A stretch of DNA of 64,000 nucleotides from a virus. This document shows positions 11,456 through 53,766 of this stretch, piece by piece. How positions within the stretch are numbered: position 1 is the first letter of the stretch; the number at the start of each line of letters is the position of its first letter. The notes beneath the pieces are model-generated. The model did not search any database. It was not told the origin of the DNA and saw only the letters and a program-made list of their open reading frames with translations. The stretch is from IMG/VR virus record IMGVR_UViG_3300032018_000001, positions 32,001 to 96,000 of that record; one strand, given 5' to 3'. Position numbers and translations under genes: made by a program.

Positions 11456-11709
11456 TGAATTCTGTGCGCGAGCTTTTGGTAAACCTGTGGAGCAAACAAA
11501 GCCAGAAGAAAAACCGGCTGCTCCTGAAGAGGAAAACCGTGACCTTCTCAGCGCTCGCATGCGTATTGCACGGGGTGAGCTCAGGCCCCCAGGACGATAA
11601 TGAGTTCAGGAATTGACTTTGGGTTTTTTATAGATAGGATGTCGGTAGCCGCGGAAGAGGCAAAAGTTCTTAGTGAACAATCACAAGGATTACTACTGAC
11701 TGCGCTTTG

Positions 11710-12181: not shown

Positions 12182-12544
12182 TTCTATGGAGCGAACAGAG
12201 GCTGTCAGGGAAAAATACTGTCTTCATTAAAGGAGTGTGTATGGCAAGCATGGCGGATATTCAGTCTGATTGTCACGGTGCTTCTGTGATGTCCATAGCA
12301 GGTAAGAGCTCCTGTTACTACAGGTGCATTAATTGCGGAAAAGAATGTACGGTACGGGCAGCAGCTCCTCAGGTAAAGACTCCCGCAGATGCTGTGATTG
12401 ATGAATTCTGTTTGAAGATTGAAAAGGAAATGGAATCTCCTGCCCAGGAGCTGCGGGAAGCAGAGAGGCTTAAGTTTGTGACGGACAGCCTAGAAGAGGG
12501 AAAGTTTATCGAGCGAAAACCTTTTGTAGCAGTGGAGGCTTAGC

Positions 12545-26608: not shown

Positions 26609-29600
26609 ATGATTTACGATTGCTTCCTATTCTATAATGAGTTTGACATTCTGGAAATCAGGCTTAACGAGCTGAATTCTGTTGTGGATAAGTTCGTGCT
26701 GATAGAATCTCCACTTACGTTTACCGGGAAACCTAAGCCCTGCTATTTCTTTGAAGACAAGAGTGGGCGCTTTGACAAATTTAAAGATAAAATTATTAAC
26801 TGGGCATTTGACTCTGGCAAAAACAATGAGCTTACTGCATGGCAAAGAGAGCACATGCAGCGTGATGTTATAAAAAGTATCTTGGTAGAAGACGAATCCC
26901 TGAAGGATGATGACATCGTTTTCTTTTCCGATGTGGAAGAGATAAATAGAAAAGATACAGTAGCTTTTGTTTGTGATGGTATTGAGCGCGGGTATTACGA
27001 TGCTGCTATACTTCAGCATAGAACAAGCTACTACTACTTCAATAATACTTTTATTGACAATCCGTGCCCTATGGCCAAAGCGTGCTCAGGAAAGTTTTTC
27101 AAAGGTGTTACCCCCAGTCAGTTCAGAGATATTACAGGAGCGATAGAAGAGGTAACACGGATACGAACAATTAAGAACTGCGGCTGGAATTTTTCTAACC
27201 TTGGCACGCCTCAGCAGTTGAAAACCAAGTTGGAGGCTTTTTCACACCAGGAGTATAAACATCTGTTTACAGAAGAGAATATCGCTAAGAACAAAGCAGC
27301 CTGCACGGATTTGTTTGAGCGGCCGGGTAAGCAGCATGAGTTTCATATCATTCCTTTGGACGATAGCTTTCCGGAATTCATCCTGCGGAATAAGGAGCGC
27401 TTCAAGGATTACATCACAGGCCCGGAAGACTTGGGGCTCCTGCAAGATTTGAGTGCTATCACTAAAAAGCACTATCCTGATGGTTTTCCAGAAAGTAAAT
27501 CGACTGAAGAGTTTTATCTTCCCGGTGTAGGATTTCTTCCTACCGCTGACGCTCATAGAAAGTTCGGACAGGAGCTTATGGATTATTCGATGGGAAAAAA
27601 GCTTCAGGTGTACTGGTTTGGGTATGGCGGAGGAGCCCATTATGCGGAAGCATTGCGGCCGTTGATTGAGGAGCTGGGAATGCAGCTGGTTACTATTCAC
27701 GAGCAGGCTAATGCAGACGTGAAATGGGATAGGAAGACTTGGCTTGCTGAGCTTAACAAGGCGGATATAATTATTTTACCGTGCAAGGTGGGAGGTTCCG
27801 CCAAGAGTAGCAACCGTCTGGCGCAGGCACTGTCTTTGGGTAAACCAGTCATATGCTCGCCGCTGGCCTCTTACTTAGAGCTTGAAAGTAAGTATCCGGA
27901 CTGCTGTAGGTTTGCAAGAGAGGAGATTGATTGGCGAGAAGCACTGTCTTACTATGCTACAGCAGCACGCCATGTAGGTTCTCCTATTCGCAAAAACGCA
28001 GTCAAGGACTACAGTATTGACAGCATAGGAGCTAAATGGGTTAGTCTTTTCTCTTCTGATTTTAAAGCTCGTAAGGTTGTGCATAGAGTTACTGTTGATA
28101 AGGAAGGAAAGGCCGGTATCAAGTTTGGTGCATTATCAAGACACACTCAGACGGTTGATATTATAATTCCCACAGCAAATAATTTTGAGCTGCTTAAAAT
28201 CTGCGTTGATAGCATCCGGGCCTGCACGAATGTTTCTTATAAGATAATCATCGTAGATAATGGCACCGGTGCGGGCACGTACAGTGCTACCTTCGTGTGG
28301 GCTAGAGAACAGAATGACGTGCTGTACGTGGGGTCTCCTGCCCGGCTGGTATTTTCAGAAGCAATCAACATGGGTATCCGTTCCTCAGATGCAAAGTACG
28401 TCTGTCTTCTGAATGATGATACCATAGTAAGCAGAGGCTGGGTTGAAGAGATGATAGCCGTCTGCGGGAATGGTGTGGGCGCTGTAGGCGTACTATCAAA
28501 CTGTGACAAAGGCTGGCAACACAACATCAGCATTAAGGCCGGTAGTGTAGCCCTGCTTCCTGGCTTAAACACGTTGGAGGAGATACGCCCTGTCATACCA
28601 GAAATCTACAAACTAGGGCCTGACTACACTGTTAAAAGCGAGCGCTCGCCGGTGCATGCTCAGGACTGGATTGCTTTCTACTGCACTCTTATTCCACGAA
28701 AGGTTATTGATGAGGTGGGCTTCTTGGATGAGGGATTCAGAAATTCAGGTGAAGATGTTGACTACTGCAAACGTATAACCAAAGCAGGATATAAAATCAT
28801 TCAGAACTATGACGCTGTGGTTTTTCATTTTGGAGCGGTAGGCAGGAAGCAGCTGGAGAAAGAAAATTATGAAGCATACCATGCAGCTGATAGAAATACG
28901 CAGAACTACTTGAAGGATAAGCATGATAATCAGGGGCTTATTGTTTTGTACTCTGGTAAAGCATGGGAAAAGTGGGACGGTGATTCCGTTGTTAAGGGTA
29001 TAGGAGGGTCTGAGACTTGGCAGGTTATGCTGGCGGAAGAGTTCTCTAAGCTTAATTACCGCGTGATAAGTTTCTGCGATTGCCCGGAAACATGCAAGAC
29101 AATCAACGGCGTGCGTTACATGCACTATTCGGAGTTTCACGCTTTCGCGTGGGTAAACTGGATTGACCTATTAATTTCTTCCCGGACAACGGAGTGCTTG
29201 GAATATGCGCGGGCGTCAAAAAAGCTGGTCATGGTGCACGATGTTTACCTTACGCGGGAAGGTGGACTGCCTCCTCATGATGATAAGGTGGACTATTATC
29301 TGTGTTTGTCAAGGGCCCACAAAGAATATTTTTCTCAATGGCAGCATGTTCAGGATAGTAAAATCCTGATTACATCAAACGGCATTGACCTTGACCGCTT
29401 TGCGAAAGCAGCACATCCGCGTAAAGACAAGTTCAAGTGTATCTATTCCAGCTCCCCAGACCGCGGACTGGAAGCGCTGCTGCTTATGTGGCCTGAGATA
29501 AAGCGCAGGGTGCCTGAGGCTACGCTGGACATATACTACGGATTCAACAACTACTGGTCTCTGACGGATGCGTGGCGGGTAAAGATGGAGGAGCTGATGA

Positions 29601-30010
29601 AGGCTCCGGGTGTTGCTTATCATGGCCGGGTAGGGCAGGATGAGCTGGCCAAGGCTTTTTACAGTAGCAAGCTGCTGCTGTATCCGTGCTCCTTTGAGGA
29701 GACCTTTTGCATCACGGCGCTGGAGGCTATGGCTGCTGGCTGCATCGTGCTGAGTTCCCGGTACTGGGGAATACAAACAACGGTTAACGATGTTGGAATT
29801 TTGATTTCAATAAAAAGCGGAAAGGAAGTTTACGAAAAGGAGTATCAGGACGTTTTTATTTCTATGGCTGTGGAAGTGCTTACTGAAGATGACAAAGGCT
29901 ACTACTGTGAGGTGGAAGGGCCTAAAAGAGCCGCTACTATGACTTGGAAGTGCGTAGCGCGTCAGTTTATCACATTTTTGGAAAAAAAAGAATGGAAAGA
30001 AATACAATAG
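26609..30010 (+). CDS. multidomain glycosyltransferase (GT17-like + GT-B + GT2 + GT4)
   Basis: 'MIYDCFLFYNEFDILEIRLNEL'; 'CLLNDD', 'EDVDYC'; 'YSSSPDRGL', 'ETFCITALEA'. Confidence 0.9.
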   Translation: MIYDCFLFYNEFDILEIRLNELNSVVDKFVLIESPLTFTGKPKPCYFFEDKSGRFDKFKDKIINWAFDSGKNNELTAWQREHMQRDVIKSILVEDESLKDDDIVFFSDVEEINRKDTVAFVCDGIERGYYDAAILQHRTSYYYFNNTFIDNPCPMAKACSGKFFKGVTPSQFRDITGAIEEVTRIRTIKNCGWNFSNLGTPQQLKTKLEAFSHQEYKHLFTEENIAKNKAACTDLFERPGKQHEFHIIPLDDSFPEFILRNKERFKDYITGPEDLGLLQDLSAITKKHYPDGFPESKSTEEFYLPGVGFLPTADAHRKFGQELMDYSMGKKLQVYWFGYGGGAHYAEALRPLIEELGMQLVTIHEQANADVKWDRKTWLAELNKADIIILPCKVGGSAKSSNRLAQALSLGKPVICSPLASYLELESKYPDCCRFAREEIDWREALSYYATAARHVGSPIRKNAVKDYSIDSIGAKWVSLFSSDFKARKVVHRVTVDKEGKAGIKFGALSRHTQTVDIIIPTANNFELLKICVDSIRACTNVSYKIIIVDNGTGAGTYSATFVWAREQNDVLYVGSPARLVFSEAINMGIRSSDAKYVCLLNDDTIVSRGWVEEMIAVCGNGVGAVGVLSNCDKGWQHNISIKAGSVALLPGLNTLEEIRPVIPEIYKLGPDYTVKSERSPVHAQDWIAFYCTLIPRKVIDEVGFLDEGFRNSGEDVDYCKRITKAGYKIIQNYDAVVFHFGAVGRKQLEKENYEAYHAADRNTQNYLKDKHDNQGLIVLYSGKAWEKWDGDSVVKGIGGSETWQVMLAEEFSKLNYRVISFCDCPETCKTINGVRYMHYSEFHAFAWVNWIDLLISSRTTECLEYARASKKLVMVHDVYLTREGGLPPHDDKVDYYLCLSRAHKEYFSQWQHVQDSKILITSNGIDLDRFAKAAHPRKDKFKCIYSSSPDRGLEALLLMWPEIKRRVPEATLDIYYGFNNYWSLTDAWRVKMEELMKAPGVAYHGRVGQDELAKAFYSSKLLLYPCSFEETFCITALEAMAAGCIVLSSRYWGIQTTVNDVGILISIKSGKEVYEKEYQDVFISMAVEVLTEDDKGYYCEVEGPKRAATMTWKCVARQFITFLEKKEWKEIQ

Positions 30011-30462
30011 TAAGACGTTTTTGGGCTAAAGTACAAGTCTGTGAAACTGATTCTTGCTGGAATTGGCTTGGTGCTTTAGATAAGGATGGTTATGGAAGAT
30101 TTAGTTATAATAAAGATAAAAAATCTGAGAGTTCTAATAGGGTTGCTTTAGAGCTTAAATTAAAACGGCCTATTCTGGCAGGGTATAAGGCCTGTCATAC
30201 TTGCGATAATACTTCTTGTGTAAACCCTAAGCATTTATACGAAGGGACAGTGCTCGATAACATTAAAGATAGAGTTTTGAGACATAGAAGTGCTTGTGGA
30301 GAGCAGAGCGGTGTGGCAAAACTGTCCAATAAGGATGTTATTGAAATACGAAAATTAGGTTTACAAGAAAAGTCTACTACTAAAATAGGAAAAATATTCG
30401 GTATTACGAGATTAACCGTATATAGGATAACTAGTAGGAAATTATGGAGACACATTGGATAG
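29992..30462 (+). CDS. HNH endonuclease
   Basis: 'CWNW.G', 'GYG', 'CHTCDNTSCVNPKHL.EGT..DN..D'. Confidence 0.9.
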   Translation: MERNTIVRRFWAKVQVCETDSCWNWLGALDKDGYGRFSYNKDKKSESSNRVALELKLKRPILAGYKACHTCDNTSCVNPKHLYEGTVLDNIKDRVLRHRSACGEQSGVAKLSNKDVIEIRKLGLQEKSTTKIGKIFGITRLTVYRITSRKLWRHIG

Positions 30463-30937
30463 CATACTGGCCAAGCTTTCTTACCTGCTACTGGAGAAGC
30501 GGCCGTTCCTGCCTACTGAAATTCTGGCCTATGCAACTATGCCGATTAGGATTGAAGCCAAAAAATGTGTATCTTCTAATGTGGAGGCCTACGGCTACGA
30601 TAAGCAGTCTCGGACATTGAAGGTTGTGTTCTCTGGGGGAGCGGAATACCGCTACCTCTGTGTGCCTGAGCAGCTGTATCAGGATTTGGATAAGACTGAC
30701 TCCAAGGGCAGCTTTATTGCTATCGTGAAGAGGATGTGCAAGGCCATACGGATTGACGGGCGCTGGTATAGCATGGAAGAGGAGAAGGGCCCTAAGGCAG
30801 CATCACCGTGCTACGACTGCAAAAGTAATAGCTGCGCTTACATAGCAGAATGCAAAGAACAGGATTTTTCTTTATTCAGAGATAAAAATGTCAAAGACAA
30901 GCAGCCCGCTACAGAAAGACCTCCAGGAAACGCTTGA
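30455..30937 (+). CDS. KTSC-domain protein
   Basis: 'VSSNVEAYGYD....LKVVF.GG..YRY..VP...Y..L....SKGSF'. Confidence 0.8.
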   Translation: MDSILAKLSYLLLEKRPFLPTEILAYATMPIRIEAKKCVSSNVEAYGYDKQSRTLKVVFSGGAEYRYLCVPEQLYQDLDKTDSKGSFIAIVKRMCKAIRIDGRWYSMEEEKGPKAASPCYDCKSNSCAYIAECKEQDFSLFRDKNVKDKQPATERPPGNA

Positions 30938-33035
30938 TGCTTTAGTAGCATCCGGGCGCTGCACGGCAGATGAGCTGGGGCAGTTTTCTGCAAAAGAGCA
31001 GGAGCTTTTAGCCAAGGCTACCCTGGAATACCTGGACAAGGGTGAATCTCTCACCATAAAAACCATAGAGTCAAGCGACTACCTTTTTGAAGTCCCTAAC
31101 ATTATTAAGTTTGTAGATGACCCCTACTACTTAGGCACGGAACTTGGCTTTGTCCGCGATGAGCATGGCCGCATAGCATCCAAGAACAGACAGATTTACG
31201 ATTACTGGCTGACACAGCTTAACGATATTTACAACAGCGCTGAGATTTACAATGAGGTACTGATTACTGGTGCTATCGGTATCGGCAAGACAACCTTCAT
31301 GAATATCATTCAGCTCTATGACCTGCTACACCTCATGGCACTTAAGAATCCTCAGCAGCATTATGGACTCATGCCAAGCACGGTTATTATTCAGGCCTTC
31401 TTTAACATCCTTATGGATTTGGCCGCGGACGTAGGCTATACTCAGTTCCAGCACATGATGGATTCTTCCGAATTTTTTCGTAAAATAATGCTCTACAACA
31501 CGAAGCTGAGAGAGGGCCTGCGATACACGCCGCCACCTAAAAAGAAAATCGCATTCCAGATAGGTTCCCGAATAGCGCACACTCTGGGCCGCGCCGTGTT
31601 CTCCGCTCAGATGGATGAGGCAAACTTTGGTATGGATACCCAGGATGACCGGCGAGCGGATGAGAAGAAGTCCCAGGTCTACGAAAACTATGTCAGCTTG
31701 CTGCGTAGAAGAGAAAGCCGCTTCCCTACAGCGCCCGGCCATTTCTGCATAGGCTCCTCCAAAAAATCCACAGCGGACTTCCTTGAAAAGCACATCGAAG
31801 ATTCAAAGGGTAAAAAGGGAGTCAAGGTTATTGATGCTGCTCAGTACATTGTGAAGGCAAACTGCTTAGACCCTATTTCAGGAAAGCCTCTCTACTCTGG
31901 AAAATTCTTTAGGGTGCTACTGGGAGACCTAACCCGCGAGCCTAAGGTGCTGGATGAGCAGGAGAAAGTAGCAGATGACCTGAAGGATAAAATCATCAAG
32001 GTTCCTGAGGAGCACAAAGTAGCCTACGACACAAACATCATTGATGCTCTCAGGGATATTTCCGGTATTGCAGCTATGCCTAAGCAGGCATTCTTTACTA
32101 ATAGAGATTTGATACGTGAGCTCATTAAGCCTGAACGTATCATTCCTTGGAAGTACACATCCATAGGAAAGACCATTCCGAATACCATTAACCTTTCCTT
32201 TTTTGGTAAAGACCAGATTCAAGATTTCCTGGTCACAGAAGGGTTATTCTGTGATAAAGGCAAGCTGCCATTCAGAAGGAATCCACGGTTTCTGTCTATT
32301 GATACCGGCTATTCCAGCAAAGGTGATGCTGCGGGTATAGCCATGACATGCCGGGCAGGTGTGCTAATCATGGAGAAGACTGGAGCAAACGGACAGCCCG
32401 AAAGATTTTACGTCCCTAAGTACTGGACGGATTTCTATATCAGAATAAAAGGAAAAAATAAAGAGGAGTTCCCTCTTTATAAGCTTACGGAATTCACAAA
32501 ATTCCTAATCCGGGAAAAGCAAATAGACATCAAAGGCTTTTCCGTTGACGGTTTCCAGTCTGTTCAAATGCAGCAGGACTTAAGAATAGCATTCCCGTCC
32601 CTGGATGTGCGCGAGTTATCTGTGGATAAGGATGACAGCCCGCACATCAACCTGAGAAATATTGTCAATGCGCGGGCTCTTGATGGCATGTACACGGATG
32701 CAAATCTCTTGACAGAGCTTTTCGACTTAGTACATATTTCTAAAACAGCCCGCGGTACGCGGGAGAATCTAAGGAAGATGATAGTAGACCACCCTACCAT
32801 AGCCTCAGATGGCTTTATTGGCAGAAAGGATGTCACGGATGCACTCACGGCGTCACTGTTCCTTTGCCGGGAGCTGGACACATCCATTTCAAATGAAGAG
32901 ATTGAAATGCAGATTGAGGATTTCAAAAAGGTAGACATCAACGACATAATTAAAAAAGCTGAAGACGAAGTGGATGCGGCAATAAAGGAAATTGACAGCT
33001 TTAAACTGGAAGACCTAAATTTTGGCGATAAGTAA
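30888..33035 (+). CDS. terL: terminase large subunit
   Basis: Walker A 'GAIGIGKT', Walker B 'MDEANF', RNase H-fold 'SIDTG...DAAG', 'DHP...KDVTDA'. Confidence 0.9.
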   Translation: MSKTSSPLQKDLQETLDALVASGRCTADELGQFSAKEQELLAKATLEYLDKGESLTIKTIESSDYLFEVPNIIKFVDDPYYLGTELGFVRDEHGRIASKNRQIYDYWLTQLNDIYNSAEIYNEVLITGAIGIGKTTFMNIIQLYDLLHLMALKNPQQHYGLMPSTVIIQAFFNILMDLAADVGYTQFQHMMDSSEFFRKIMLYNTKLREGLRYTPPPKKKIAFQIGSRIAHTLGRAVFSAQMDEANFGMDTQDDRRADEKKSQVYENYVSLLRRRESRFPTAPGHFCIGSSKKSTADFLEKHIEDSKGKKGVKVIDAAQYIVKANCLDPISGKPLYSGKFFRVLLGDLTREPKVLDEQEKVADDLKDKIIKVPEEHKVAYDTNIIDALRDISGIAAMPKQAFFTNRDLIRELIKPERIIPWKYTSIGKTIPNTINLSFFGKDQIQDFLVTEGLFCDKGKLPFRRNPRFLSIDTGYSSKGDAAGIAMTCRAGVLIMEKTGANGQPERFYVPKYWTDFYIRIKGKNKEEFPLYKLTEFTKFLIREKQIDIKGFSVDGFQSVQMQQDLRIAFPSLDVRELSVDKDDSPHINLRNIVNARALDGMYTDANLLTELFDLVHISKTARGTRENLRKMIVDHPTIASDGFIGRKDVTDALTASLFLCRELDTSISNEEIEMQIEDFKKVDINDIIKKAEDEVDAAIKEIDSFKLEDLNFGDK

Positions 33036-36850: not shown

Positions 36851-37432
36851 ATGAGCATTCTTGGAGCTTATGCAGGAAAAGAACCGAAGAAATTTTTTCG
36901 TCTTCTGGATACGGTAGGTGATGGCAGCGGGGTTAAAAATGCGGCCGTTGACCATAGCGGTGCGGCGGTTGCTTACAAGATTAAGCCGCACACAAGCACT
37001 GACCCGAAAGTGCCGAGTGAGGTCTTTGATATTCAGAAATTGAATATTGAAATTGAAGACGCTGGTATCAAAGCAGACCTGTATGGCGGAGCAGCCGCTC
37101 TTTCCAACGGCATTCAGGTTTTAGTTTTGGATGCATCCGGAGTTAAGATTGACCTGACCAACGGCGTAACAATCAAAAAGAATTACGATTACGCCCGGCT
37201 CGGTGTGGTCAGGGAATCATCTTCCGGCGCTACAACCAATTTTGTCACCGTGAGCATTGACTTGTCAAAGCTCAATCAGTACAACTGCGGTGTGCGCTTG
37301 AACGGAGATAAAGGCGAATTCCTGGAAGTGCTCCTGCATGATGACTTCTCAGGCCTCACCAGTCATTTTTTCGTGGCACAAGGCGAAGTCGTTTCCGATG
37401 GGCCGTTCCTGGTTGATACTGTTAGCGCCTAA
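36851..37432 (+). CDS. putative virion structural protein
   Basis: Gly/beta-rich protein within the head module. Confidence 0.45.
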   Translation: MSILGAYAGKEPKKFFRLLDTVGDGSGVKNAAVDHSGAAVAYKIKPHTSTDPKVPSEVFDIQKLNIEIEDAGIKADLYGGAAALSNGIQVLVLDASGVKIDLTNGVTIKKNYDYARLGVVRESSSGATTNFVTVSIDLSKLNQYNCGVRLNGDKGEFLEVLLHDDFSGLTSHFFVAQGEVVSDGPFLVDTVSA

Positions 37433-37440
37433 GGAGCTGT

Positions 37441-38169
37441 ATGAATGCAACACGCCGGTTAGAAAGTATCCTTCTTGAAGCTGTGTACCAGCTCGGAGAA
37501 GGCGTCTATGACCCCGGAATATTTCGGGCAGTGTTCACCGCAGGAGGCCCCGCTTCTGGAAAATCCTTTGTTGCCAGTATGACTACTGGCGGTTTGGGTT
37601 TGAAAGTGCTGACCTCTGATGATTTGGTAACACTGCTCTGGAAACGTACCGGTAAGTCTTTTGACTTTGATACTTTCTCTCCGGAAGATAAAGCACACTT
37701 TAGCGCTACGCGGCAGGTAGCCAAGGATAAGACTGCAGAACGGCAAGCAAACTTTCTTGAAGGAAGACTCGGCCTTATCATTGATGGCACAGGCGCAGAT
37801 TATTCTGACATTGCAGATTTGAAAAACCAGCTAGAAGAGCTTGGCTACGATTGCTACATGGTGTTTGTTAATACAACACTGGAGGTAGCACAAGGTAGGA
37901 ACGCGGGACGTTTTGAAAGAAATCCTGGCCAAGGCAGGAAAGTTTTTGCAGATGTGCTGAATAAGAAGTGGCGGCAGGCTCAGGATAATATGTCGAAGTT
38001 TCGCGGATTGTTTGGACACAATTTTGTAGAAGTGGATAACAGCGCAGATGCTTCCATGAATGCGGAAGTTTACAGTACCGTCTGGAAGCAGATTATGAAA
38101 TTTGTTAAGCAGCCTATCAGGAATTCAACGGCATTACAGTGGATGCGGGATAAGGGAGCGCGAATATAA
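37441..38169 (+). CDS. P-loop kinase (AAA_33/zeta-toxin-like)
   Basis: 'EGVYDPGIF.AVFTAGGPASGKS', 'LIIDGTG', 'MVFVNT.LEVA..RN..R'. Confidence 0.85.
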   Translation: MNATRRLESILLEAVYQLGEGVYDPGIFRAVFTAGGPASGKSFVASMTTGGLGLKVLTSDDLVTLLWKRTGKSFDFDTFSPEDKAHFSATRQVAKDKTAERQANFLEGRLGLIIDGTGADYSDIADLKNQLEELGYDCYMVFVNTTLEVAQGRNAGRFERNPGQGRKVFADVLNKKWRQAQDNMSKFRGLFGHNFVEVDNSADASMNAEVYSTVWKQIMKFVKQPIRNSTALQWMRDKGARI

Positions 38170-38708
38170 TGCAACGCTTGTCAGCCCTTGTGGAATTCAC
38201 ACGTAAAGAAATCATAGGTGGCACCGACCCTACATTTATCCATCATAAATTTTACACAAAAGACCTGCCTAACGCAGGAGGTTCGCACTATCAAGAAATT
38301 CACAAAGTACAGGTAGCAAACAACAAGCACTACGAAGTTGTTTTCCGTACTGACTCTCGGACGTTTCCGGGAGATGATTACCTTCAAAAAATAATTTTGA
38401 TGGATTTGAATGCGATGCTTAGAGATAAAAAATCCGACCTGACATTCAAAGATAAAGTAATGTACGCGATTAACTCTGGTGATTTATTAGTAGGATGCCA
38501 GTGCCCAGCATTTCTGTATTGGGGTTATGCTTACATTACTACACAGCTTGGCATTGTGCATCCGGAGTTCAAGGAGCCGCGCACTCCCAAAGTTAGAAAT
38601 CCTCAGATGCGCGGGATTATCTGCAAACACCTATCATTAGCACTTCAGGTGCTGCCCTTCAACGCCAGCAGCATAACCTCAGACCTGAAAGACCTATTAG
38701 ATGCTTAG
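38169..38708 (+). CDS. SWIM-type zinc-finger protein
   Basis: 'CQCPAFLYWG...RNP...GIICKH'. Confidence 0.7.
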   Translation: MQRLSALVEFTRKEIIGGTDPTFIHHKFYTKDLPNAGGSHYQEIHKVQVANNKHYEVVFRTDSRTFPGDDYLQKIILMDLNAMLRDKKSDLTFKDKVMYAINSGDLLVGCQCPAFLYWGYAYITTQLGIVHPEFKEPRTPKVRNPQMRGIICKHLSLALQVLPFNASSITSDLKDLLDA

Positions 38709-38813
38709 TCTTCACTGCATTTTTGTTATAGGGCTTACTGTTATCGTAGCAGCTTTGCTACTTGCCTTACTGCTAGTGATTGATGAAACAGACCCGGTGA
38801 GCGGGGAGATCTG

Positions 38814-39548
38814 ATGCAAAAACTAAAAAATTTAGTGGATTATTCCACCTTTATGGCTGAGCTCCACAATGCGGCCACGGCCGCGGGATTCATTACTAAG
38901 GTGCTGGGGAAGGTAGACGGCGAACCGATACTGTGTCTTAGCAAGCTACAGAGCCCGGAAACGGCCTCAGGTAAGAGGAAAGTGCTCATTGCCGCAGGCT
39001 TCCATGGCAATGAGCCTGGAGGCCCGTGGGGCGTCGTAGAATGGCTTAAACAGTTCGGTAGCGTGCCCCTGGATGGTGTGGACGTTACTATCCTGCCTCT
39101 GGTAAACCCGGACGGTTTCAAAAACGACATTCGGGAAGACAATACTGACGATGACCCTAATCGCGGCTGGACAAAGAATCCTGAGCAGCATGCTTCCAAA
39201 GAGGGCATTGTTCTGCTGGGCCATATCCAGGAGCTCTATGACGCCTCTCTGGATGGATTTCTGACCCTGCATGAAAATACTGGCAGTACTTATTTTGTTA
39301 TAACAATTGATGAGAAGGGCCTGCTATCTGAAAAGCTTAAAGAGGCCGGTAGCTTGTTCTTCACTACTGAGCATACTGAAAAACCAAAAGACGATACCTT
39401 TGAAGTTTTTCTGAATAACATTGGCGTCCCTATTGTGGTTGTCTCTGAATCTCCTTCTCAGCAGCCCCTCGAAAAGCGTGCTGAGTGTAATGCTTTTGTA
39501 ATAAAAAAATTCATTGAGTACTACGATAAGATGGAATGGAATGTTTAA
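38814..39548 (+). CDS. M14-family zinc carboxypeptidase/deacylase
   Basis: 'AGFHGNEPGG', 'PLVNPDG', 'DPNR', 'LTLHE', C-terminal catalytic Glu. Confidence 0.85.
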   Translation: MQKLKNLVDYSTFMAELHNAATAAGFITKVLGKVDGEPILCLSKLQSPETASGKRKVLIAAGFHGNEPGGPWGVVEWLKQFGSVPLDGVDVTILPLVNPDGFKNDIREDNTDDDPNRGWTKNPEQHASKEGIVLLGHIQELYDASLDGFLTLHENTGSTYFVITIDEKGLLSEKLKEAGSLFFTTEHTEKPKDDTFEVFLNNIGVPIVVVSESPSQQPLEKRAECNAFVIKKFIEYYDKMEWNV

Positions 39549-39574
39549 CTGAGCACTCTGCACATACTCCATAC

Positions 39575-39610
39575 AAAAGCACCAGCAATAACGCTGGTGC
39601 TTTTCTTTTT
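39575..39610 (+). terminator. rho-independent terminator
   Basis: AAAAGCACCAGC/GCTGGTGCTTTT followed by a T run. Confidence 0.85.
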
Positions 39611-40418
39611 TATCCTTAGTATGTGAGAAAAGGTTTTATCTCGTATTAATGTAAGTGAGGAAAGAAATTTTAGTTCTTTTCTTTTAAAGAGGAATACTAT
39701 AAGAAGGTAAGACTTTTATATAGTATTATGATTAGGAATTTTTATTTAATACACTCTTCGTGTATTCAGCTATAAAGAAGTTAAGTAAAAATAATACTTT
39801 TTTATTGACTTTACCAATAAAATAAACTATTTTGATAGTATGCTAATCATCTCCAGTGCTAATACTCGCGGCGGCAAAGCTGGCAGAGGTAAAAATAAAA
39901 CCTCTACCGTGCGCGTGATGGAATTGGATATTAGTGGATTCGGCCGTATTGTGGCACAGTACCGCTATAAGGTTTCAGACCCTGCTACTTATGTTGTGGC
40001 ATTTAATAAGGCTCAAAGCTTTATCAGGAAAAATAAACCCAAGGGTGTCAAAGGATTCAACTACGGCTTATTCGGAAAGGAAAACAATGAGCAACCCTGA
40101 ACAAGTAAACAGATTCATGCAGGAGAGAGCGTGGGAATACAAGCAGGCAATGGAAGATATAAATAAGGCTGTTGCTATCTATTCCAGCTACTACGCCGCT
40201 TTCCTTCGGGGTGTGTACGAGAATGACCCTGATGTTGATATTACCCCTAAGCTTAAGCTTGCTCTCATGGGAGCTTATCAGAATATTTTGACCAAAGTAA
40301 ATACTGAGGCTAAGATTATTTCGTGGGATACAGAAACGGACGTAATAATTTTGGAGATTGGTCGCTTCAGATTGAAGTGCTATCTCAGAGACCTTAATGA
40401 AAATGAACAGGAGGCAGT

Positions 40419-41114
40419 ATGCGAATTGGAATTATGATTTTGCTTTTGCTGGCGGCGAGCCTTTTTTCTCAGGGTACAGATTACTTTACCAAGTGTGTAA
40501 AGCATGGCGGCATTTACGTGGCCATAGGTAGGAATAAAACCGGGACGTATGTGAATTACTATTTCCTAAAAACATCCAAGGATTCTGTTACGTGGGTTAC
40601 ACAGGATATGTCAATCGGAATTTCGGATGTGCGCTGGCTGGGTGATAGATTTGTTGTTCCATGCTTTTCTAAGGTTTTGTGTTCTATGGATGGTATTGTC
40701 TGGAGCGAAAGTTATGTTAGGGATTATGCTATCTGTGTTTGGGGTACTCAAGGTTACGGAAGGCCTGCTACAAATTTAGATGTGCGAATAATTGCATCAG
40801 CAGGCGGTAATAAGTACGTGATGCGTTTTCCCTATCAGTGGGTGGATGGTATTATTTGTAACATGACGGATGGATGGTACTACGGCTACTACTACTCTGA
40901 TGACAGTTGCCGGTATTGGAATCAGTATGACGGCGCGGACTGGAGCAGCGCAAATAACGCCGTAGAAAAAAGCGTGCTGCCCGCTAAGGCTGCTATGGCC
41001 AAGGCTACTGCGACTTATGACATCAGGGGAAGGCGCGTTTCAGGCATGACTCGGCCGGGAATTTATTTTGTTACAGACGGCATTATAACGAAAAAGGTTT
41101 TCAATCCGTATTAA
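40419..41114 (+). CDS. secreted protein with T9SS/Fibrobacterota-type C-terminal domain
   Basis: signal peptide 'MRIGIMILLLLAASLFS'; C-terminus 'TYDIRGRRV....PGIYFV.....KKV'. Confidence 0.6.
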   Translation: MRIGIMILLLLAASLFSQGTDYFTKCVKHGGIYVAIGRNKTGTYVNYYFLKTSKDSVTWVTQDMSIGISDVRWLGDRFVVPCFSKVLCSMDGIVWSESYVRDYAICVWGTQGYGRPATNLDVRIIASAGGNKYVMRFPYQWVDGIICNMTDGWYYGYYYSDDSCRYWNQYDGADWSSANNAVEKSVLPAKAAMAKATATYDIRGRRVSGMTRPGIYFVTDGIITKKVFNPY

Positions 41115-41454: not shown

Positions 41455-42366
41455 ATGACTAAGTTTTTCAAGTTTATCTGGGAGCGCATATCCTGGCTGT
41501 TTTCAAATGATTCGTGGCCTGAGCTTACCGCCACAAAGAAGACCAGTGCAGAGCATGATGCCGCATACCGTAAGGGCCTTACTGGGAGTGCTGTAGGCAT
41601 GACAGGCCCTGAAGCTTTAGGGCGCGGCCCCGAGGGCGTGACCGGCATTCAAGGTACTATTGGTATGGCCAGTATTCCTCCCGTAACTGCATATCCTGGT
41701 ACATCCGTGTTTCAGGGGATAAGAATAAGCGAAGCAGCTTTTAATGCCGGGCAGAGCATGGCACAGTCTGCAAGTCTTCCTGGAGACAGACCTGACCCTT
41801 CTTGGCTTAAGATTCAGATTACAGACTTGACAAATCTTCCGTGGAATAAAAACGGACAGCGGTGGAAGAAGGATGTGAATTATAAAAAGGACATTGACAC
41901 AATCATAGTCCATCAGTCTGCGTCCGGTAGCAAGGATGACCTGGATGGAATCAATCTGTACCAAATCACCGGCCCAAATCATTTAGGGCCTGAGGGAGCC
42001 CCGCACATCTGCTATGATTACGGAATCCGGAAGAACGGAGAAATCTGTCAGCTGAATGCGCCTGAGGATGTTCTCTGGAGTAATGTTGGTGGCAACATAA
42101 AGGGCATTGCTATTGTGGTAGTAGGAAATTTCACAGCGCACGACCACGAAGGCAAGCTTCTCTACCAGGGAACGGATGAGCCTACGCCTGAGCAAACCAA
42201 AAGCCTTAATCGGTTACTTTATTGGCTTTGTCACGAAAGTGAATTTCATAGCAACCTGAGTGCTTTTCGCGTGTATGGGCATACAGATTTCGGAAAGCCT
42301 ACGTGCCCAGGTGATGTGCTGAATGCCCTGGTTACGGATATAAGACGTGGAGGCTATATTTCATGA
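41455..42366 (+). CDS. N-acetylmuramoyl-L-alanine amidase (Amidase_2)
   Basis: 'TIIVHQS', 'ICYDYGI..NG', 'IVVVGNF', 'EPTPEQ', 'YGHTD...TCPG'. Confidence 0.85.
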   Translation: MTKFFKFIWERISWLFSNDSWPELTATKKTSAEHDAAYRKGLTGSAVGMTGPEALGRGPEGVTGIQGTIGMASIPPVTAYPGTSVFQGIRISEAAFNAGQSMAQSASLPGDRPDPSWLKIQITDLTNLPWNKNGQRWKKDVNYKKDIDTIIVHQSASGSKDDLDGINLYQITGPNHLGPEGAPHICYDYGIRKNGEICQLNAPEDVLWSNVGGNIKGIAIVVVGNFTAHDHEGKLLYQGTDEPTPEQTKSLNRLLYWLCHESEFHSNLSAFRVYGHTDFGKPTCPGDVLNALVTDIRRGGYIS

Positions 42367-42712
42367 TGCACTTTATTCATGCACACTGGATTATCGCGTT
42401 TATCTGGCTTATCATCGGAATATTCATGGCCGGGTTTGAAATTCAGAAGTCAGAAATTCATGATAAAAATAAAAAGCAAAAAGGCGAGCCTACCAAAGAG
42501 TACACTGCGGGTGTTCGACTTTTGGCTTCAATGATTATTGCTTGTGCGGGCCCCATAACTTTGATTGCTAACTTTGGTGGCTGGTGTTACAGGAGATACA
42601 ACCGCGGCGGAAATAAAAGAAGAATGCTTTGCTGAAAGACGTTCATACAATAAAGTTCGTAAAGAAGAAAAAGAGTGGTTTGACAAATACGAAACAATAT
42701 AATGTGGGATTT

Positions 42713-42789
42713 GGCCAACAGGGGCGGCACGAATCCCGTGCCACCGCAAATTTGCGAGTACGCAAACTTCGGCAAGCAATTTGTTGTCT
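42713..42789 (+). repeat. attC-like site (left arm degenerate)
   Basis: CAAAT-TTGCG..CGCAA-ACTTCGG motif, then GTTGTCT AAAAT. Confidence 0.55.
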
Positions 42790-42841
42790 AAAATAAACCG
42801 GCCAAGACAAGGCCGCCGCCGAAAGGCAGAAAGCGAGAAAA

Positions 42842-43096
42842 ATGGAAGACTGGAAAGAAGCTATCGTGATTATTATCGCCCTGCTTGTTGTTGGCACCTC
42901 TGCCATCAAAGGGTGCCAAACTGTTTATGAAACTGACGCGAAGGTATCTATTACCGCGATGGAAAAGGGCTACACTCATGCAACGGTTAATGGGTCGTCA
43001 ATGATTGTGTGGGTAAAAAAGACGGCGGCGGAAGAGGCCGGTTTACTTCAGACAACAAACGCAAGCCCGGCTCACTCAACCGCAAATGCTAAATAA
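42842..43096 (+). CDS. cassette-encoded small membrane protein
   Basis: N-terminal hydrophobic helix; reads into the attC site. Confidence 0.6.
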   Translation: MEDWKEAIVIIIALLVVGTSAIKGCQTVYETDAKVSITAMEKGYTHATVNGSSMIVWVKKTAAEEAGLLQTTNASPAHSTANAK

Positions 43097-43160
43097 TGGA
43101 TAGGCGGTTTCGTTCGCCCAAATGCGCTATGCGCACTTCGGGCTTGCGCATCCGTTGGGC
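43050..43160 (+). repeat. attC-like site
   Basis: R'' AGACAAC; arms CGCAAGCCCG/CGGGCTTGCG; CAAAT-GCGC TAT GCGC-ACTT; R' GTTGGGC. Confidence 0.8.
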
Positions 43161-43319
43161 AAAATAAAACTACGCGCAAGGCAAAGAAGCGCGGCTTTCA
43201 GCCTCGGAGGAAATAAAATGGAACAAGAAAAATGCAAAAACACAATCTGTAAATACAATAACGATGGACACTTGATTGGAACTATGTTGCGAAAGAAAAA
43301 GAGCGCGTAGTTTTAAATC

Positions 43320-43377
43320 GCCCAACAACCGGCTTGGCGGCTCCGGTGGACAAGCCACCTACGACCCAACGTTGTGC
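43320..43377 (+). repeat. short/degenerate attC-like site
   Basis: R'' GCCCAAC; GGCTTG/CAAGCC arms; R' GTTGTGC. Confidence 0.65.
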
Positions 43378-43425
43378 GCAAAATTGGCCGAAAGACATTA
43401 AAGGCATCGCGCCGGAAAGACAAAA

Positions 43426-43728
43426 ATGATAAAAACAAAGTTGGTGCAAAAGATAGGTGAATTTAATCTTGAGAAAAGAGTGGTAGTGAATCCCCCGTAC
43501 ACGGTTTACGGGCACAGCACATTATTGCCGTCATTTTCTATGTCTATGAAGGTTGGTGGGCTTCGGAAAATGTTGGTCGGGTTAGCTGACGAAGATTCTT
43601 TCGGAATAACTGTATCCGATAAAATGACAGAATACACCATTGTAAAGAAATTAAAGACCGGCGCGAAATCATCGGCCAATTCAGCGCACAACAAACCCCA
43701 TGCCGGTTCATTCGGCGGGAGAGAATAG
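43426..43728 (+). CDS. cassette-encoded hypothetical protein
   Basis: ORF between attC-like sites. Confidence 0.55.
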   Translation: MIKTKLVQKIGEFNLEKRVVVNPPYTVYGHSTLLPSFSMSMKVGGLRKMLVGLADEDSFGITVSDKMTEYTIVKKLKTGAKSSANSAHNKPHAGSFGGRE

Positions 43729-43799
43729 ATAATGGAAAACCCGCCTCATTCACCCAAATGCGCCAGGAGCGCACTTCGGCATGGGGCGGTCCGTTGTGT
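43686..43799 (+). repeat. attC-like site
   Basis: R'' GCACAAC; arms CCCCATGCCG/CGGCATGGGG; CAAAT-GCGC..GCGC-ACTT; R' GTTGTGT. Confidence 0.8.
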
Positions 43800-43858
43800 T
43801 CAATTAAACCGTGCCAATACCAAAGGCACAACGCGGCCAAGGCCGCTGAAAGGATAAG

Positions 43859-44101
43859 ATGGAGCAAAAATCTTTTTGGATGATTGAAAAGCCTATCAAC
43901 GGTGTCGCTCATTGGTGGGTACGCAGAGAAGGGCAAAACGAATACTGGGATAACCCAGACCGATGGACAACTGATCCCAGTAAGGCACGGCATTACCTTT
44001 CCGTAGAAGAAGCTCTGCACGTTATGGGCCATGACATGATTGGTTGCATTGCAACTGAACATCTCTGGATGGACAAAGAAACAAAGGCAGGCACGGTTTA
44101 A
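43859..44101 (+). CDS. cassette-encoded hypothetical protein
   Basis: 'WMIE...WTTDPSKA......EA...ATEH.W'. Confidence 0.6.
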   Translation: MEQKSFWMIEKPINGVAHWWVRREGQNEYWDNPDRWTTDPSKARHYLSVEEALHVMGHDMIGCIATEHLWMDKETKAGTV

Positions 44102-44137
44102 CTAAACGCCGGTTACACCGGCTGAAAGGCGGAGCAG

Positions 44138-44410
44138 ATGAAAAATTATGAGATGTTTGAGCCAAAATTCAAGATGCATGACATCCTGAAAGATACCACA
44201 AACGGAATGAAAGGTAAGTGTCTCGGTGTCACATTTTATTCTACGGGATGTATTCATTATGGGCTTGCCCCTCTCAAGGCAAAGCCGGACGGAACGCAAC
44301 CGGACTGGTTCTGGCTTGATGAAACACGGGTTGGCTTGGTTCAGTCGGCAAAAATTCAGAAGTTGGAAAAACCACATTCCGGGCCGGATATGAATCCGAG
44401 AATGCAATAA
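44138..44410 (+). CDS. cassette-encoded hypothetical protein
   Basis: 'KD..NG.KG...G..FY.TGC.HYGL.P.....W.DE'. Confidence 0.6.
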   Translation: MKNYEMFEPKFKMHDILKDTTNGMKGKCLGVTFYSTGCIHYGLAPLKAKPDGTQPDWFWLDETRVGLVQSAKIQKLEKPHSGPDMNPRMQ

Positions 44411-44432
44411 AGGCAGCGCAACTTTTAACTAA

Positions 44433-44530
44433 ACACAACAAACTAAAGGGCGGATCACATGCTCGCATGTTCGACCTACATGGTTTTAAAAATTGATTAT
44501 GGGAAAAACCACGTCGCCCTTAGGTTATGG
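44433..44530 (+). repeat. attC-like site (array right end)
   Basis: R'' ACACAAC; arms CTAAAGGGCG/CGCCCTTAG; G|TTATGG. Confidence 0.65.
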
Positions 44531-44704
44531 CGACATCGCAGGCGGGGAATGTGTTGTCGGGTGCGACGCAGAGGCTAAGGTTGTATCAATCGAAATCCTT
44601 GAGGATGGAAAAGTCATAGACAGTTTCAAAGCTTAAAAAGGCAGTCTGAGCCGTGGGTGCGCAATCGTGCCCCTGCGCAGCGCACATCTTGCCCGGCATC
44701 TTTT

Positions 44705-44759
44705 TTCGCGGCTGATGAGGTAGTAACGCCACCGAAACGCCTTAAAGGCGTACCGCGGA
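44705..44759 (+). ncRNA. type I hammerhead ribozyme
   Basis: stem I TTCGCGG/CCGCGGA, core CTGATGA, stem II GGT/ACC, GAAA, stem III CGCCT/AGGCG, GTA cleavage triplet (cut after 44752). Confidence 0.85.
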
Positions 44760-45413
44760 GTGGCCCACGCCGGGGAATAACTGGCCACCAGGGGGCACGG
44801 CTCAGGCTGCTTAGTTTATACTTAAAAAGGAGTGTGTATGGAAGAGAGAACAGAAGTTGATGTTAAGAAGATGAGCGCTGATGATTTTATCAGCAAACTT
44901 CGGGTGCCCCCTTGCCGCGGTCTCATGGGCAAGATTTTCGGTCACAATTTTGTGGAGGCCATTAACCAGGATACTGCCGGGCTTTCCCCGGAGCAGCTGG
45001 CTCACATTGTCGAAGCCTGCATTGACCCTACAATGGATATGGTCACGGTACGGCATCTCATTTCTACCACGGAGCCGGGTACTACACTTGTCAAGGCTAT
45101 CTACTGCACGCGCTGCGGGGAGGAGAAGAGCGTCAATGGAAATGGCAATTCGGGCAAGTAAGCAGGAAATACTTGACAATTACGGTACGCTTGAGCTGAA
45201 TTTTGTTCGGGAGCGGCATGGGATATTCTGGTATGCAAATACCATACAGAAGTTTTTTCCTGTTGCAGAGCCTGCTCTTGAATTCACAGCCAGCATAGGC
45301 TACCCATTGACGCCGAAAGTTACCGTCCGGTATTTCATAGAAGAGGGGGAAAACATTTCCATCATCAAAAAAGACACCGGAGCATTTCTCTATGTTCAAA
45401 CACGGAGCTGACT

Positions 45414-46079
45414 GTGAAAACAAGAGCGGAGCTTGCAGCTATTTGGGAGTTTGGTTTTCTTGTTTTATTTATTATACTGGCTGGCTGGCTGGCCTTAATG
45501 GTTAAAAAGCAGCAAGTCACCATTGATGCAGCAGAAAGGATTGCTCAGGTGTACAAAGCAGATTCGGTAGAGCTTCACGCTATCAAGGCCACACTCATGC
45601 TGGCCTATGACCTGTCAGACCCAGAGGCGGAATTTTTCGGGTACTGGTTTAACAAAAAATCCAAGCAGTTCAGTATTCCGTGGATGACCTTTGCTGCGGT
45701 TGCTAAGGTTGAATCAGGCTACAATCCCACTGCTACCTCTGAGGCCGGTGCCAAGGGGTACATGCAGATGCTTGATACCACACACCAAGAGCAGTGTCAA
45801 AAGCTGGGTATTCCATTTGTGAAGGGTAAGACTCCATGGATTGATGTAATCAATGTCGTGTGCGGTAGCAACTACTTGGCTGAATCAAAGGATACTACTT
45901 TTGAGGTCATGGTTAAACGCTATCTGGCACCGCTGCATGCTAAGATAAAAAAGCAAGCCAAGAAAGAGCCTGAGAATGTTCAGCTGCAAAAGAAGGCTGC
46001 TACGATTGAGCAGTACTACCATGACGTGCGCCGGGAATTTATGCTGCTGAGCGCTATCTATACCGGGATTAAAAAATGA
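45414..46079 (+). CDS. membrane-anchored lytic transglycosylase (SLT)
   Basis: N-terminal TM; 'AVAKVESGYNPTATSEAGAKGYMQML', 'N...G..YL'. Confidence 0.85.
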   Translation: MKTRAELAAIWEFGFLVLFIILAGWLALMVKKQQVTIDAAERIAQVYKADSVELHAIKATLMLAYDLSDPEAEFFGYWFNKKSKQFSIPWMTFAAVAKVESGYNPTATSEAGAKGYMQMLDTTHQEQCQKLGIPFVKGKTPWIDVINVVCGSNYLAESKDTTFEVMVKRYLAPLHAKIKKQAKKEPENVQLQKKAATIEQYYHDVRREFMLLSAIYTGIKK

Positions 46080-49881: not shown

Positions 49882-50262
49882 ATGAGAATCCTACAAATCG
49901 GAACGCAGAAGTACACGCAGGTTATTTGCAAGGATGAGCCTAACAGTGTGAATGGTGGCGGAGCCTGTCATTCCTACGCGGTGCTCCCAACAGAGGCGGA
50001 TTTTAGCAAAGATGCAGCGGGAATACAGCTTGCTACTGTAAACTTTCAAAACGGCCCTATCAAAGAAGCGGGCGTGAACGGGTGCCACAACGAAGACCTG
50101 CTTGCAATCGTCATTGACCGGCTGGAGCATTTCCAGAAGGGCTCCTTTGCTTGCCGGGAGAACGCGCTGGCACTGACCAAGTTGGAAGAGGCGATGCACT
50201 GGCTGCGGCACCGCACAAGCGCCAGGGAGGCCCGCGGCGTAGAAGGCACCAGCCAGAAATAG
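49882..50262 (+). CDS. tad1: Tad1-like (Acb2/Tad1) anti-defence sponge protein
   Basis: 'GGACHSY', 'FQNGP', 'DLLAIVIDRLEHFQKG.F.CRENALALTKLEEAMHW..R...R..RGVEGT'. Confidence 0.8.
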   Translation: MRILQIGTQKYTQVICKDEPNSVNGGGACHSYAVLPTEADFSKDAAGIQLATVNFQNGPIKEAGVNGCHNEDLLAIVIDRLEHFQKGSFACRENALALTKLEEAMHWLRHRTSAREARGVEGTSQK

Positions 50263-52314: not shown

Positions 52315-53766
52315 AGGACGTAACGGATGAATAAGCCCATGCGTAAGCTGGCCAAGAGGGTTGCTAAGGATTTGCGAAAGCAGATTGACAAAGAGTGCAA
52401 GGAAAAAGGAAAGCCTTTCGGTACGCTTTCTGACAAATATAAGGTTGTGGCGTTCCTGGGCTACAGGCCCAGAAACGATTTTCTTATTGCTGGTCTGGGG
52501 GGAATTTAATGGCTAAGGTCATTGAGCGGTTATCTCCTAACGGCCAAGCTTACATGCGTGACAACGTGATGACCGGCTACGACTCTGATTTTGGCCGGTC
52601 AACTGTTTTTGTGGTATGCCCTTTTGTGCAGCAGGCTGATGCTTTGGGTTTCGGCCCTGTCAAAAGCTTAAGCCTGTTGCTTCTGCTCGCCAATTCCTGC
52701 ACTGGTCTGCACATCAATATTCGGGCTGTGAGGACGGGGATTTGACTACCCGTTCCCGTGAAGTCTGAACCTCAGCTGCAGGGAGAGGCCCTGCTACTCC
52801 AAGGGTAGCAGGGTTTTTTGTCTTAGTAGGGTAAATTTAAAGATAAATACTTTCATTATTTGCTTGCATTCCTGATTGTAATTGCTTATATTAGTAGTGT
52901 AGGGAAATGAGTATCACTGAGAAATCAAAAAAGCTCTTCATTGATTACGTGAAGGATGCTGGGAACTGGTCTGGATGCCCTGTAGTGGGCGGGAACGTGG
53001 GAGGAAGCAAGGAAGACCGCGGGAACCTTACTCACCTGAAGAAGCTCGGACTCGTAGTAGGCGTTGATGATGAGGAGACTCCTTACATCGTTTTTACCAA
53101 AAAAGGTTTTGATTATGCTTGCAAGCTTGGCCTTGCGGAATACCTGGAAGAGAGTGATTGTACGGCTCAGTCTGAAATAAAGGAGAACTCATGAAGCCCC
53201 TATCAGAATTGGAAAAGCTCGTTCTCTCGGAAGAAAACAGGAAGCAGCAGGCGCGGAACCTGTACGTGAACATTTCACGGGAAGACCTTCGCAGGATGGT
53301 ACGCGCTTATCGCAGGAAGGAGAAAGCATGAGCCTTGAACTTGATATGGCGCTGACGCGAATAGACCTGGACAAAGAGAACGCGGACAGGAAAGAGCGGG
53401 CGCGTTACCAGGAACGGTTGCTAAGCATGATTAAGGCCCAGATACCCCACCGGTACGAAGACTGGAAAAAGGAAATCCTTTCAGGTACTATCCAAGACCC
53501 GCGCCTGAAAGTCTGGATAGGAAATGAGCGGTACAAGTCCGGGCGCGGAACGCTCTGGTCAAATTACGTTCAAAGCATCATCGACACATTTCCTGATACG
53601 ATAAAATAGGAGGTACTATGAGTCCTGAAGAAAAGGTAAAAAAGTTGAGCGGAGATTTGGTCAAGGCTCTTGCAGAGTTGCCAGCGTATCCTTACGATGT
53701 TGTTTCTGGGTTAGTAGCCTCTGCCCGGCAGCTGAAAGACAAAATCAATAAACACCTGGAGGGTAA

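Follow-up and report, generated by a model that had tools for sequence, protein, structure and literature searches.

Integron-type gene cassettes in a T4-like phage genome: a likely orphan array with long-stemmed recombination sites

Gene acquisition and exchange in the variable regions of lytic phages are largely unexplained, with homologous recombination and homing endonucleases covering part of the process. The question is raised anew by a row of small open reading frames (ORFs) and palindromic sites at positions 42713-44530 of the 64,000-nucleotide stretch analyzed here (the window). The window corresponds to bases 32001-96000 of IMG/VR virus record IMGVR_UViG_3300032018_000001, a genome of 141,806 bp with direct terminal repeats that is rated complete. 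We consider it likely that the region is an orphan array of integron-type gene cassettes in a T4-like phage, similar to a cluster of attC sites lacking integron integrases (CALIN), with an enzyme acting in trans. The phage holds four array cassettes, partial end sites and one solo cassette, and sequence comparisons show re-assortment of cassettes and their insertion between the G and TT of a GTT triplet (G/TT below). The locus provides nucleotide-level evidence for integron-style cassettes in a T4-like phage: one cassette lies within a phage gene whose relatives have an empty site, and another recurs, nearly identical, in a different array alongside an anti-Thoeris gene.

The array comprises four consecutive units (42784-44524), each with its own inverted repeat that starts exactly at GTT/AAC and has arms of 16-24 nt. 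The units and their ORFs (lengths in amino acids, aa) are:

42784-43154, + strand, cassette A (left arm 42783-42803, right arm 43036-43056, own site 43050-43160)
42842-43096, + strand, ORF of cassette A, 84 aa, one predicted membrane helix
43155-43371, + strand, cassette B (right arm 43303-43326, own site 43320-43377)
43218-43310, + strand, ORF of cassette B, 30 aa, with a GGAGG ribosome site upstream
43372-43793, + strand, cassette C (right arm 43672-43692, own site 43686-43799)
43426-43728, + strand, ORF of cassette C, 100 aa
43794-44524, + strand, cassette D, composite with two ORFs (outer right arm 44424-44439, own site 44433-44530)
43859-44101, + strand, ORF D1, 80 aa
44138-44410, + strand, ORF D2, 90 aa

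Counted from the G of GTT, the arms are complementary at 19/21 nt in unit A, 21/24 nt in unit B and 19/21 nt in unit C. The outer pair of unit D matches at 14/16 nt, and an internal copy of its right arm (44090-44107) at 16/18 nt. The arms are specific to their unit except for GTTG/CAAC and an A-rich stretch of loose conservation. The same rule, by which the start of a cassette complements the 5' box (R'') of its own site, holds for 4/4 array units, for the solo unit and for two cassettes of a second array on contig L015, both described below. Inverted repeats of this size are rare: those of at least 16 nt number 12 across all 141.8 kb, and the two longest are in the array. When pairs bounded by GTT...AAC were sought with no more than 3 mismatches in 18 nt, the genome gave only these units and two pairs within ordinary coding sequence, which have no palindromic site. 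The ORFs are co-oriented, each upstream of its own site, and those of cassettes A and C run through the right arm, R'' and the inner arm to a stop codon in the hairpin loop. Searches of Pfam, PHROGs and the protein atlas gave no useful function for the cassette ORFs of the window.

Five sites, bounded where complete by R'' at the 5' end and R' at the 3' end, are distributed along the array:

42713-42789, + strand, site 1, truncated attC-like site with a CAAAT-hairpin-ACTT element, an orphan 3' inner arm, a spacer and R' GTTGTCT (42783-42789)
43050-43160, + strand, site 2, attC of cassette A, 111 nt, R'' AGACAAC and R' GTTGGGC, spacers of 3 nt (5') and 5 nt (3')
43320-43377, + strand, site 3, attC of cassette B, 58 nt, a short form lacking the conserved sub-element
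43686-43799, + strand, site 4, attC of cassette C, 114 nt, with the same three-way-junction design as site 2
44433-44530, + strand, site 5, attC of cassette D, 98 nt, lacking the CAAAT sub-element, its 5' part homologous to the site of D1 in L015

In sites 2 and 4, the 5' half consists of an R'' 7-mer ending in CAAC, a 3-nt spacer and the first arm of a perfect 10-bp inner stem. At the tip, two hairpins branch off to give a three-way junction. One has 6 bp and a 20-nt loop, in which the upstream ORF reaches its stop codon and an ATG is present; the other has 5 bp and lies between CAAA and CTT. The 3' half consists of the second arm of the inner stem, a spacer of 5-6 nt and an R' box with GTTG. 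From one of these sites to the other, the sequence changes in the inner stem and in each hairpin with pairing complete, and the junction strands are conserved. AAC...GTT cores are present in all five full sites (sites 2 and 4, that of the solo cassette and the two in L015), whose inner stems of 8-11 bp are unrelated in sequence from one to the next; the stems were tabulated by script, the diverged sites not being structurally alignable by MAFFT. The two spacers of a site differ consistently in length, with 2-4 nt on the 5' side vs 4-6 nt on the 3' side. The inner stem of site 5 has 7 bp, or more if one bulged base is allowed; GTTATGG at 44524, which no spacer precedes, is its probable but uncertain R'. 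The sequence CAAAT-hairpin-ACTTCGG occurs 3 times in the window (sites 1, 2 and 4) vs 0.37 expected, and nowhere in the rest of the genome. No site matched an Rfam family, and a sigma-70-like promoter was matched in none of them.

Three further candidates for the sites or parts of them were rejected. A phage promoter was considered for the A-rich motif that follows R', but the motif shows no enrichment upstream of other genes. The junction lengths and sequences of the sites are unlike a hammerhead core, which excludes variant hammerheads. A hairpin resembling the XerC arm of dif was seen in one site only and is a coincidence.

An earlier note, made from the letters of the window, had described this anatomy in outline. 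Its five palindromic sites and four complementary 7-mer pairs are all present at the positions it gave, as are perfect arms of up to 10 bp, in sites 2 and 4. The pairs do differ between units, but they are the ends of the longer arms given above. The five-site scheme stands for sites 2 and 4, which are full; site 1 turned out to be a 3' half without its 5' inner arm, site 3 a short form, and site 5 one whose R' is uncertain. Likewise, A, B and C are the simple units that had been described, but D is composite, and the sub-element reported as conserved has three copies and is absent from sites 3 and 5.

Movement is documented by the solo cassette, which lies far upstream of the array and carries a sixth site:

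11710-12181, + strand, solo cassette, 472 bp, with a left arm from GTT, a leader and a right arm ending in CAAC (to 12106)
11772-12080, + strand, ORF of the solo cassette, 102 aa
12100-12187, + strand, solo site, 88 nt, with an 8-bp inner stem and a CAAAT hairpin

The cassette splits a 52-aa phage gene exactly at G/TT into two parts (11600-11709 and 12182-12229), and joining 11709 to 12182 restores the 52-aa ORF. Two uninterrupted full-length homologues are available (P0021 and P0022; 92% and 87% identity), one of them on contig L013. This contig (78% nucleotide identity) aligns to the window up to 11714 and again from 12181, with an overlap of only GTTCTA. As nothing but GTTCTA is common to the two breakpoints, the 472-bp unit is therefore bounded by G/TT on both sides, with no other duplication. 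Judged by these alignments, the solo unit appears to be an insertion in this phage or, alternatively, its absence a precise excision in the relatives, with G/TT boundaries either way.

Re-assortment is indicated by cassette D. The exact D1 protein is also encoded on L015, a 1676-bp contig. Over 316 nt this contig and the window share 99.4% of their DNA sequence, starting one base before the GTT of the left arm; upstream sequences are unrelated and downstream neighbours differ. The right arm of D1 is uninterrupted in L015 and is followed by a complete site. The next cassette has its own 23-nt arms and encodes a Tad3 Thoeris inhibitor (76.5 bits), and beyond it lie another site and a further cassette. 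D1 is thus one cassette present in two different arrays. The end of the contig (L015 1412-1624) is a GC-rich tandem-repeat tract, ~71% identical to intergenic or hypothetical regions of 27 mycobacteriophages, probably a low-complexity similarity.

The whole block is absent from a syntenic relative. The genes around the array, and the two remaining elements of the block, are:

41455-42366, amidase endolysin gene, upstream of the array
42363-42635, small membrane protein gene, between the endolysin gene and the array
44499-44636, + strand, putative 45-aa ORF, starting in a loop of site 5 and extending past R'
44636-44816, + strand, structured RNA-like element, 181 nt, closing the inserted block
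45414-46079, SLT transglycosylase gene, downstream of the array past genes of 107 aa and 91 aa

A syntenic relative (JGI sample 3300069644) was compared through gene tables. On its contig, the endolysin is 65% identical to that of the window, and the SLT protein falls in the same 90% cluster as its counterpart there. The distance between the two genes is 827 nt in the relative vs 3048 nt in the window, and therefore a block at ~42640-44815 (~2.2 kb) is missing from the relative, where three tightly packed genes lie between endolysin and SLT on a contig without long intergenic gaps. The missing block takes in the cassettes with their sites as well as the 45-aa ORF and the structured RNA.

The folding of the junctions was evaluated by joining the 3' end of each cassette (right arm, site and terminal G) to its own 5' end, the arrangement of an excised circle, and folding both strands with DNA parameters. 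Rejoined in this way, 7/7 cassettes gave one long hairpin (-19 to -47 kcal/mol); with the arm of the neighbour, as in the array context, the folds reached -12 to -29 kcal/mol. The bottom strand was the more stable one in 7/7 cassettes. Arm mismatches are equally one-sided: 13 are A.C on the top strand (G.T on the bottom), 0 are the reverse, and 7 are A.A on the top strand. With the shared D1 arms counted once, G.T mismatches number 9 on the bottom strand vs 0 on the top. Such one-sidedness is compatible with a bottom strand of DNA that folds to become the substrate, which is the case in integrons, and speaks against a structure of the sense transcript.

These results bear out two proposals of the earlier note, namely that integron-type cassettes recombine at G/TT (the solo insert against L013, the start of D1 in L015) and that genes are gained by the phage and shuffled in it (the solo unit compared with L013, P0021 and P0022; D1 in L015; the block-free relative). 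The note had named fixed gene order and bottom strands that do not fold like attC as what would refute its proposal, which was not refuted by this check: relatives show gain or loss at G/TT, and of the two strands it is the bottom one that folds better, into long hairpins.

The observations are consistent with the following mechanism. A cassette is one small gene (two in D) together with its own imperfect-palindrome site 3' of the gene. Crossover takes place between G and TT at the 3' end of the site, and an integrated cassette therefore begins with TT and an arm of ~20 nt, whose reverse complement immediately precedes the site of that cassette. Excision as a circle would unite both arms and, with the inner stem, yield a long hairpin of ~21-24 bp, a short asymmetric spacer, 8-11 bp and a small branched tip, with the bottom strand folding best. 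A site-specific recombinase would recognise the folded site and insert the circle at another such site, giving rise to arrays, and occasional insertion at a bare GTT elsewhere would give a solo cassette that splits a phage gene. We infer the circular intermediate, the single-stranded bottom-strand substrate and the class and source of the enzyme, for which the likeliest candidate is an integron- or Xer-type tyrosine recombinase that the host or another phage would provide in trans.

Several results weigh against this reading. The earlier note had seen no tyrosine recombinase in the window, which holds for the complete genome: it has no PF00589 (Phage_integrase) match even at E up to 10, no integron integrase (TIGR02249) or resolvase (PF00239) match, and no match to the Y1 transposase (PF01797), rve (PF00665) or reverse transcriptase (PF00078) families. 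There is no IntI beside the array, which makes it a CALIN at most and not a complete integron, and no small Xer-like tyrosine recombinase adjoining it or elsewhere in the complete genome. Site-motif scans of IMG/VR with four strict patterns, which diverged sites would escape, gave nothing or chance and coding matches. A scan of 185,579 bacterial and archaeal species genomes (one each) with one strict pattern gave no matching site, and no host or donor integron was found. The distant or host integron-like integrase proposed in the earlier note can be presumed at most, these searches having returned neither a recombinase in the phage nor a matching site in the species genomes. A second assembly (L014) is 100% identical, and no circle, excision junction or population variant was seen.

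One junction also departs from the rule. Compared with L015, the D2 segment (44108-44434) lies within the right arm of D1, between 11-nt direct repeats (44097-44107 and 44424-44434) and not at G/TT. This points to an insertion or deletion through short homology, so that ordinary recombination also remodels the array. The closest D2 homologue (L005) is 77% identical at the nucleotide level over the ORF only and stands in an unrelated gene row without such sites; more distant homologues are found in various phage contexts, again in tight gene rows without such sites.

The last points against the reading concern the sites, of which some 7-mers deviate from the RYYYAAC/GTTRRRY consensus. Inner stems are mostly perfect and have no extrahelical bases, which in classical attC sites guide strand choice. 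The stem extends ~15 bp below the R box; to our knowledge, classical attC sites have no stem continuing there. Because no IntI was found and the sites are atypical, membership in the integron family proper is not established.

The likeness to integron cassettes and CALINs is nevertheless detailed. In both, co-oriented and mostly single-ORF units are each followed by an imperfect palindrome with AAC...GTT cores; the crossover is at G/TT, the cassette start complements its own R'', and insertion can occur at a secondary GTT site. Asymmetric spacers and site lengths of 58-114 nt, within the attC range, are also common to both, the bottom-strand bias may be a further common trait, and the lack of an integrase in cis is the defining trait of a CALIN. 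Long, mutually similar sites within an array are likewise a feature of the Vibrio-type integron attC (VCR, ~120 nt), which also has an AAC-AAA-inner-arm layout at its 5' end. A folded single strand is the substrate of a tyrosine recombinase in another phage setting, the attP of the CTX phage used by XerCD.

An attC array in a phage is an already published category: CALINs occur in 17 phage genomes, virulent ones included, and IntI1 recombined 5/6 tested sites (Qi et al. 2023, PMC9892861). The published TJE1 CALIN has no extended arms, and its phage encodes no tyrosine recombinase. What distinguishes the present case is complementarity reaching 16-24 nt past the core, so that the crossover falls inside a long stem and not at its base, and the conserved three-way-junction tip on inner stems of the perfect type noted above. 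Cargo and contexts are also phage-type (Tad3; D2 homologues on phage contigs), and movement within phage genomes is documented at the nucleotide level. New here are the long cassette-specific stems, the nucleotide-level insertion evidence in a T4-like phage and the anti-defence cargo; a cassette-specific stem of ~20 bp beyond the core is a design not described for classical attC. Polaribacter phage P12002L (L043), which has no tyrosine recombinase either, carries cassettes with 9-14 nt of cassette-specific GTT.../...AAC complementarity. At 29166-31325 and 37200-40940 of that genome, methyltransferase and small-ORF cassettes share a common TAATT-like motif, and their design resembles the arms described here.

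These differences leave room for cassette exchange proper to phages and independent of bacterial integrons, which we advance tentatively, as possible rather than probable. T4-like phages might trade small accessory and anti-defence genes (e.g., Tad3) as circles through long-stem hairpin sites, the catalyst being a non-IntI recombinase not encoded by the carrier, either an Xer-like one that a co-infecting phage supplies in trans or one of a kind not yet described. The locus makes three questions testable: which recombinase acts, whether it acts on phage DNA during infection, and whether anti-defence genes are traded in this way.

Another form of DNA mobility, either hairpin-guided single-strand transposition of the IS200/IS605 or PATE type or a terminal inverted repeat element moved by a phage enzyme, is improbable. 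Hairpin sites, the lack of target duplication beyond GTT, strand asymmetry, a genome without an integrase and the many phage ORFs without known function would all suit it. In the genome, however, neither a Y1 transposase nor a DDE enzyme was found. The Y1 HUH transposase (PF01797) of IS200/IS605 and PATE elements comes with a subterminal hairpin at each end, whereas the unit described here has one site, at the 3' end only, and is asymmetric (left arm; right arm plus site) as integron cassettes are. Moreover, the same GTT stands at both junctions, as would result from a conservative crossover, and tandem arrays have one shared site per junction.

PeSLs, the promoter plus stem-loop modules of T4-type phages that recombine by homology and for which mini-circles have been proposed (Arbiol 2010, PMC2839356; Comeau 2014, PMC4122927), are the closest phage-specific precedent. 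As with PeSLs, small accessory ORFs lie in a hyperplastic region of a T4-like genome with structured intergenic elements at their flanks. Shuffling of this type, in which genes between regulatory modules are exchanged by homologous recombination between module copies, would agree with the T4-like portal and prohead protease, the variable region, the sequence common to sites 1, 2 and 4, the published mini-circles and the 11-nt direct repeat around D2, which is expected from recombination of similar arms. We regard it as very improbable. The target of the solo cassette was a bare GTT in a coding sequence that holds no homologous element, and the homology of D1 with L015 begins at GTT and not within a shared element. 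The unit-specific covarying inverted repeat and inner stem are neither needed nor explained by homologous exchange, and promoter-like sequence is lacking from the sites.

That the stems and three-way junctions act in the transcript, in RNase III-type processing or as translational operators, with mobility incidental, is hardly credible as the main explanation: the stems do covary, a conserved loop in sites 2, 4 and 5 includes an ATG and the stop codon at which the preceding ORF ends, and an RNA with a hammerhead core directly follows the array, but the transition-type arm mismatches are A.C on the sense strand and wobble only on the antisense strand (13 vs 0), boundaries of DNA insertion and exchange coincide with the structures, and the sites belong to no Rfam family. 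A secondary RNA role of the sites could exist alongside the orphan-array reading, which we prefer over these alternatives.

The phage itself appears to be of the lytic type and a distant T4-like one, as it encodes a T4-type portal and prohead protease and its portal is only ~30% identical to that of any cultured phage. It uses strong Shine-Dalgarno sites, and therefore its host is probably outside Bacteroidota. The array locus had no blastn match among 50,697 phage records, and the endolysin, the downstream ORF, SLT and P0017 as queries retrieved no related loci from IMG/VR or the JGI metagenomes. Near the solo cassette, a Phage_int_SAM_1 match (13.8 bits) is antisense within a 160-aa gene and spurious.

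The structured element at 44636-44816 is GC-rich, with a closing helix of ~16 bp and a fold of -83.7 kcal/mol (z = -2.9). It contains a complete hammerhead core at 44707-44757 (CUGAUGA, GAAA and a GUA cleavage site), with a weak match to Rfam HH9 (13.6 bits, E = 1.3). Beyond it, a 176-aa ORF in the mechanical ORF list (44881-45411) is probably no gene. Public gene calls on the identical contig L014 give 107 aa (44838-45161) and 91 aa (ending at 45411) instead, sizes that agree with genes of the relative. An identical 16-nt ribosome-site and start context (AAAGGAGTGTGTATGG) at 12229-12245 and 44824-44840 precedes the genes after the solo cassette and after the array block; two identical 16-mers are at about chance level.

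Elsewhere in the window, a 126-aa gene (49882-50262; L014 14469-14849) has a precomputed Pfam match to Acb2_Tad1_hairpin, a family of cyclic-nucleotide sponge anti-defence proteins, and has no cassette arms or sites on either side. A dispersed element of ~50-74 nt, picked up through secondary BLAST hits of L014, has at least 6 copies in the phage genome (81-95% identity), three in the window (52839-52912, 8023-8096 and 7070-7139) and three outside it (136214-136287, 132087-132150 and 131609-131659 in genome coordinates).

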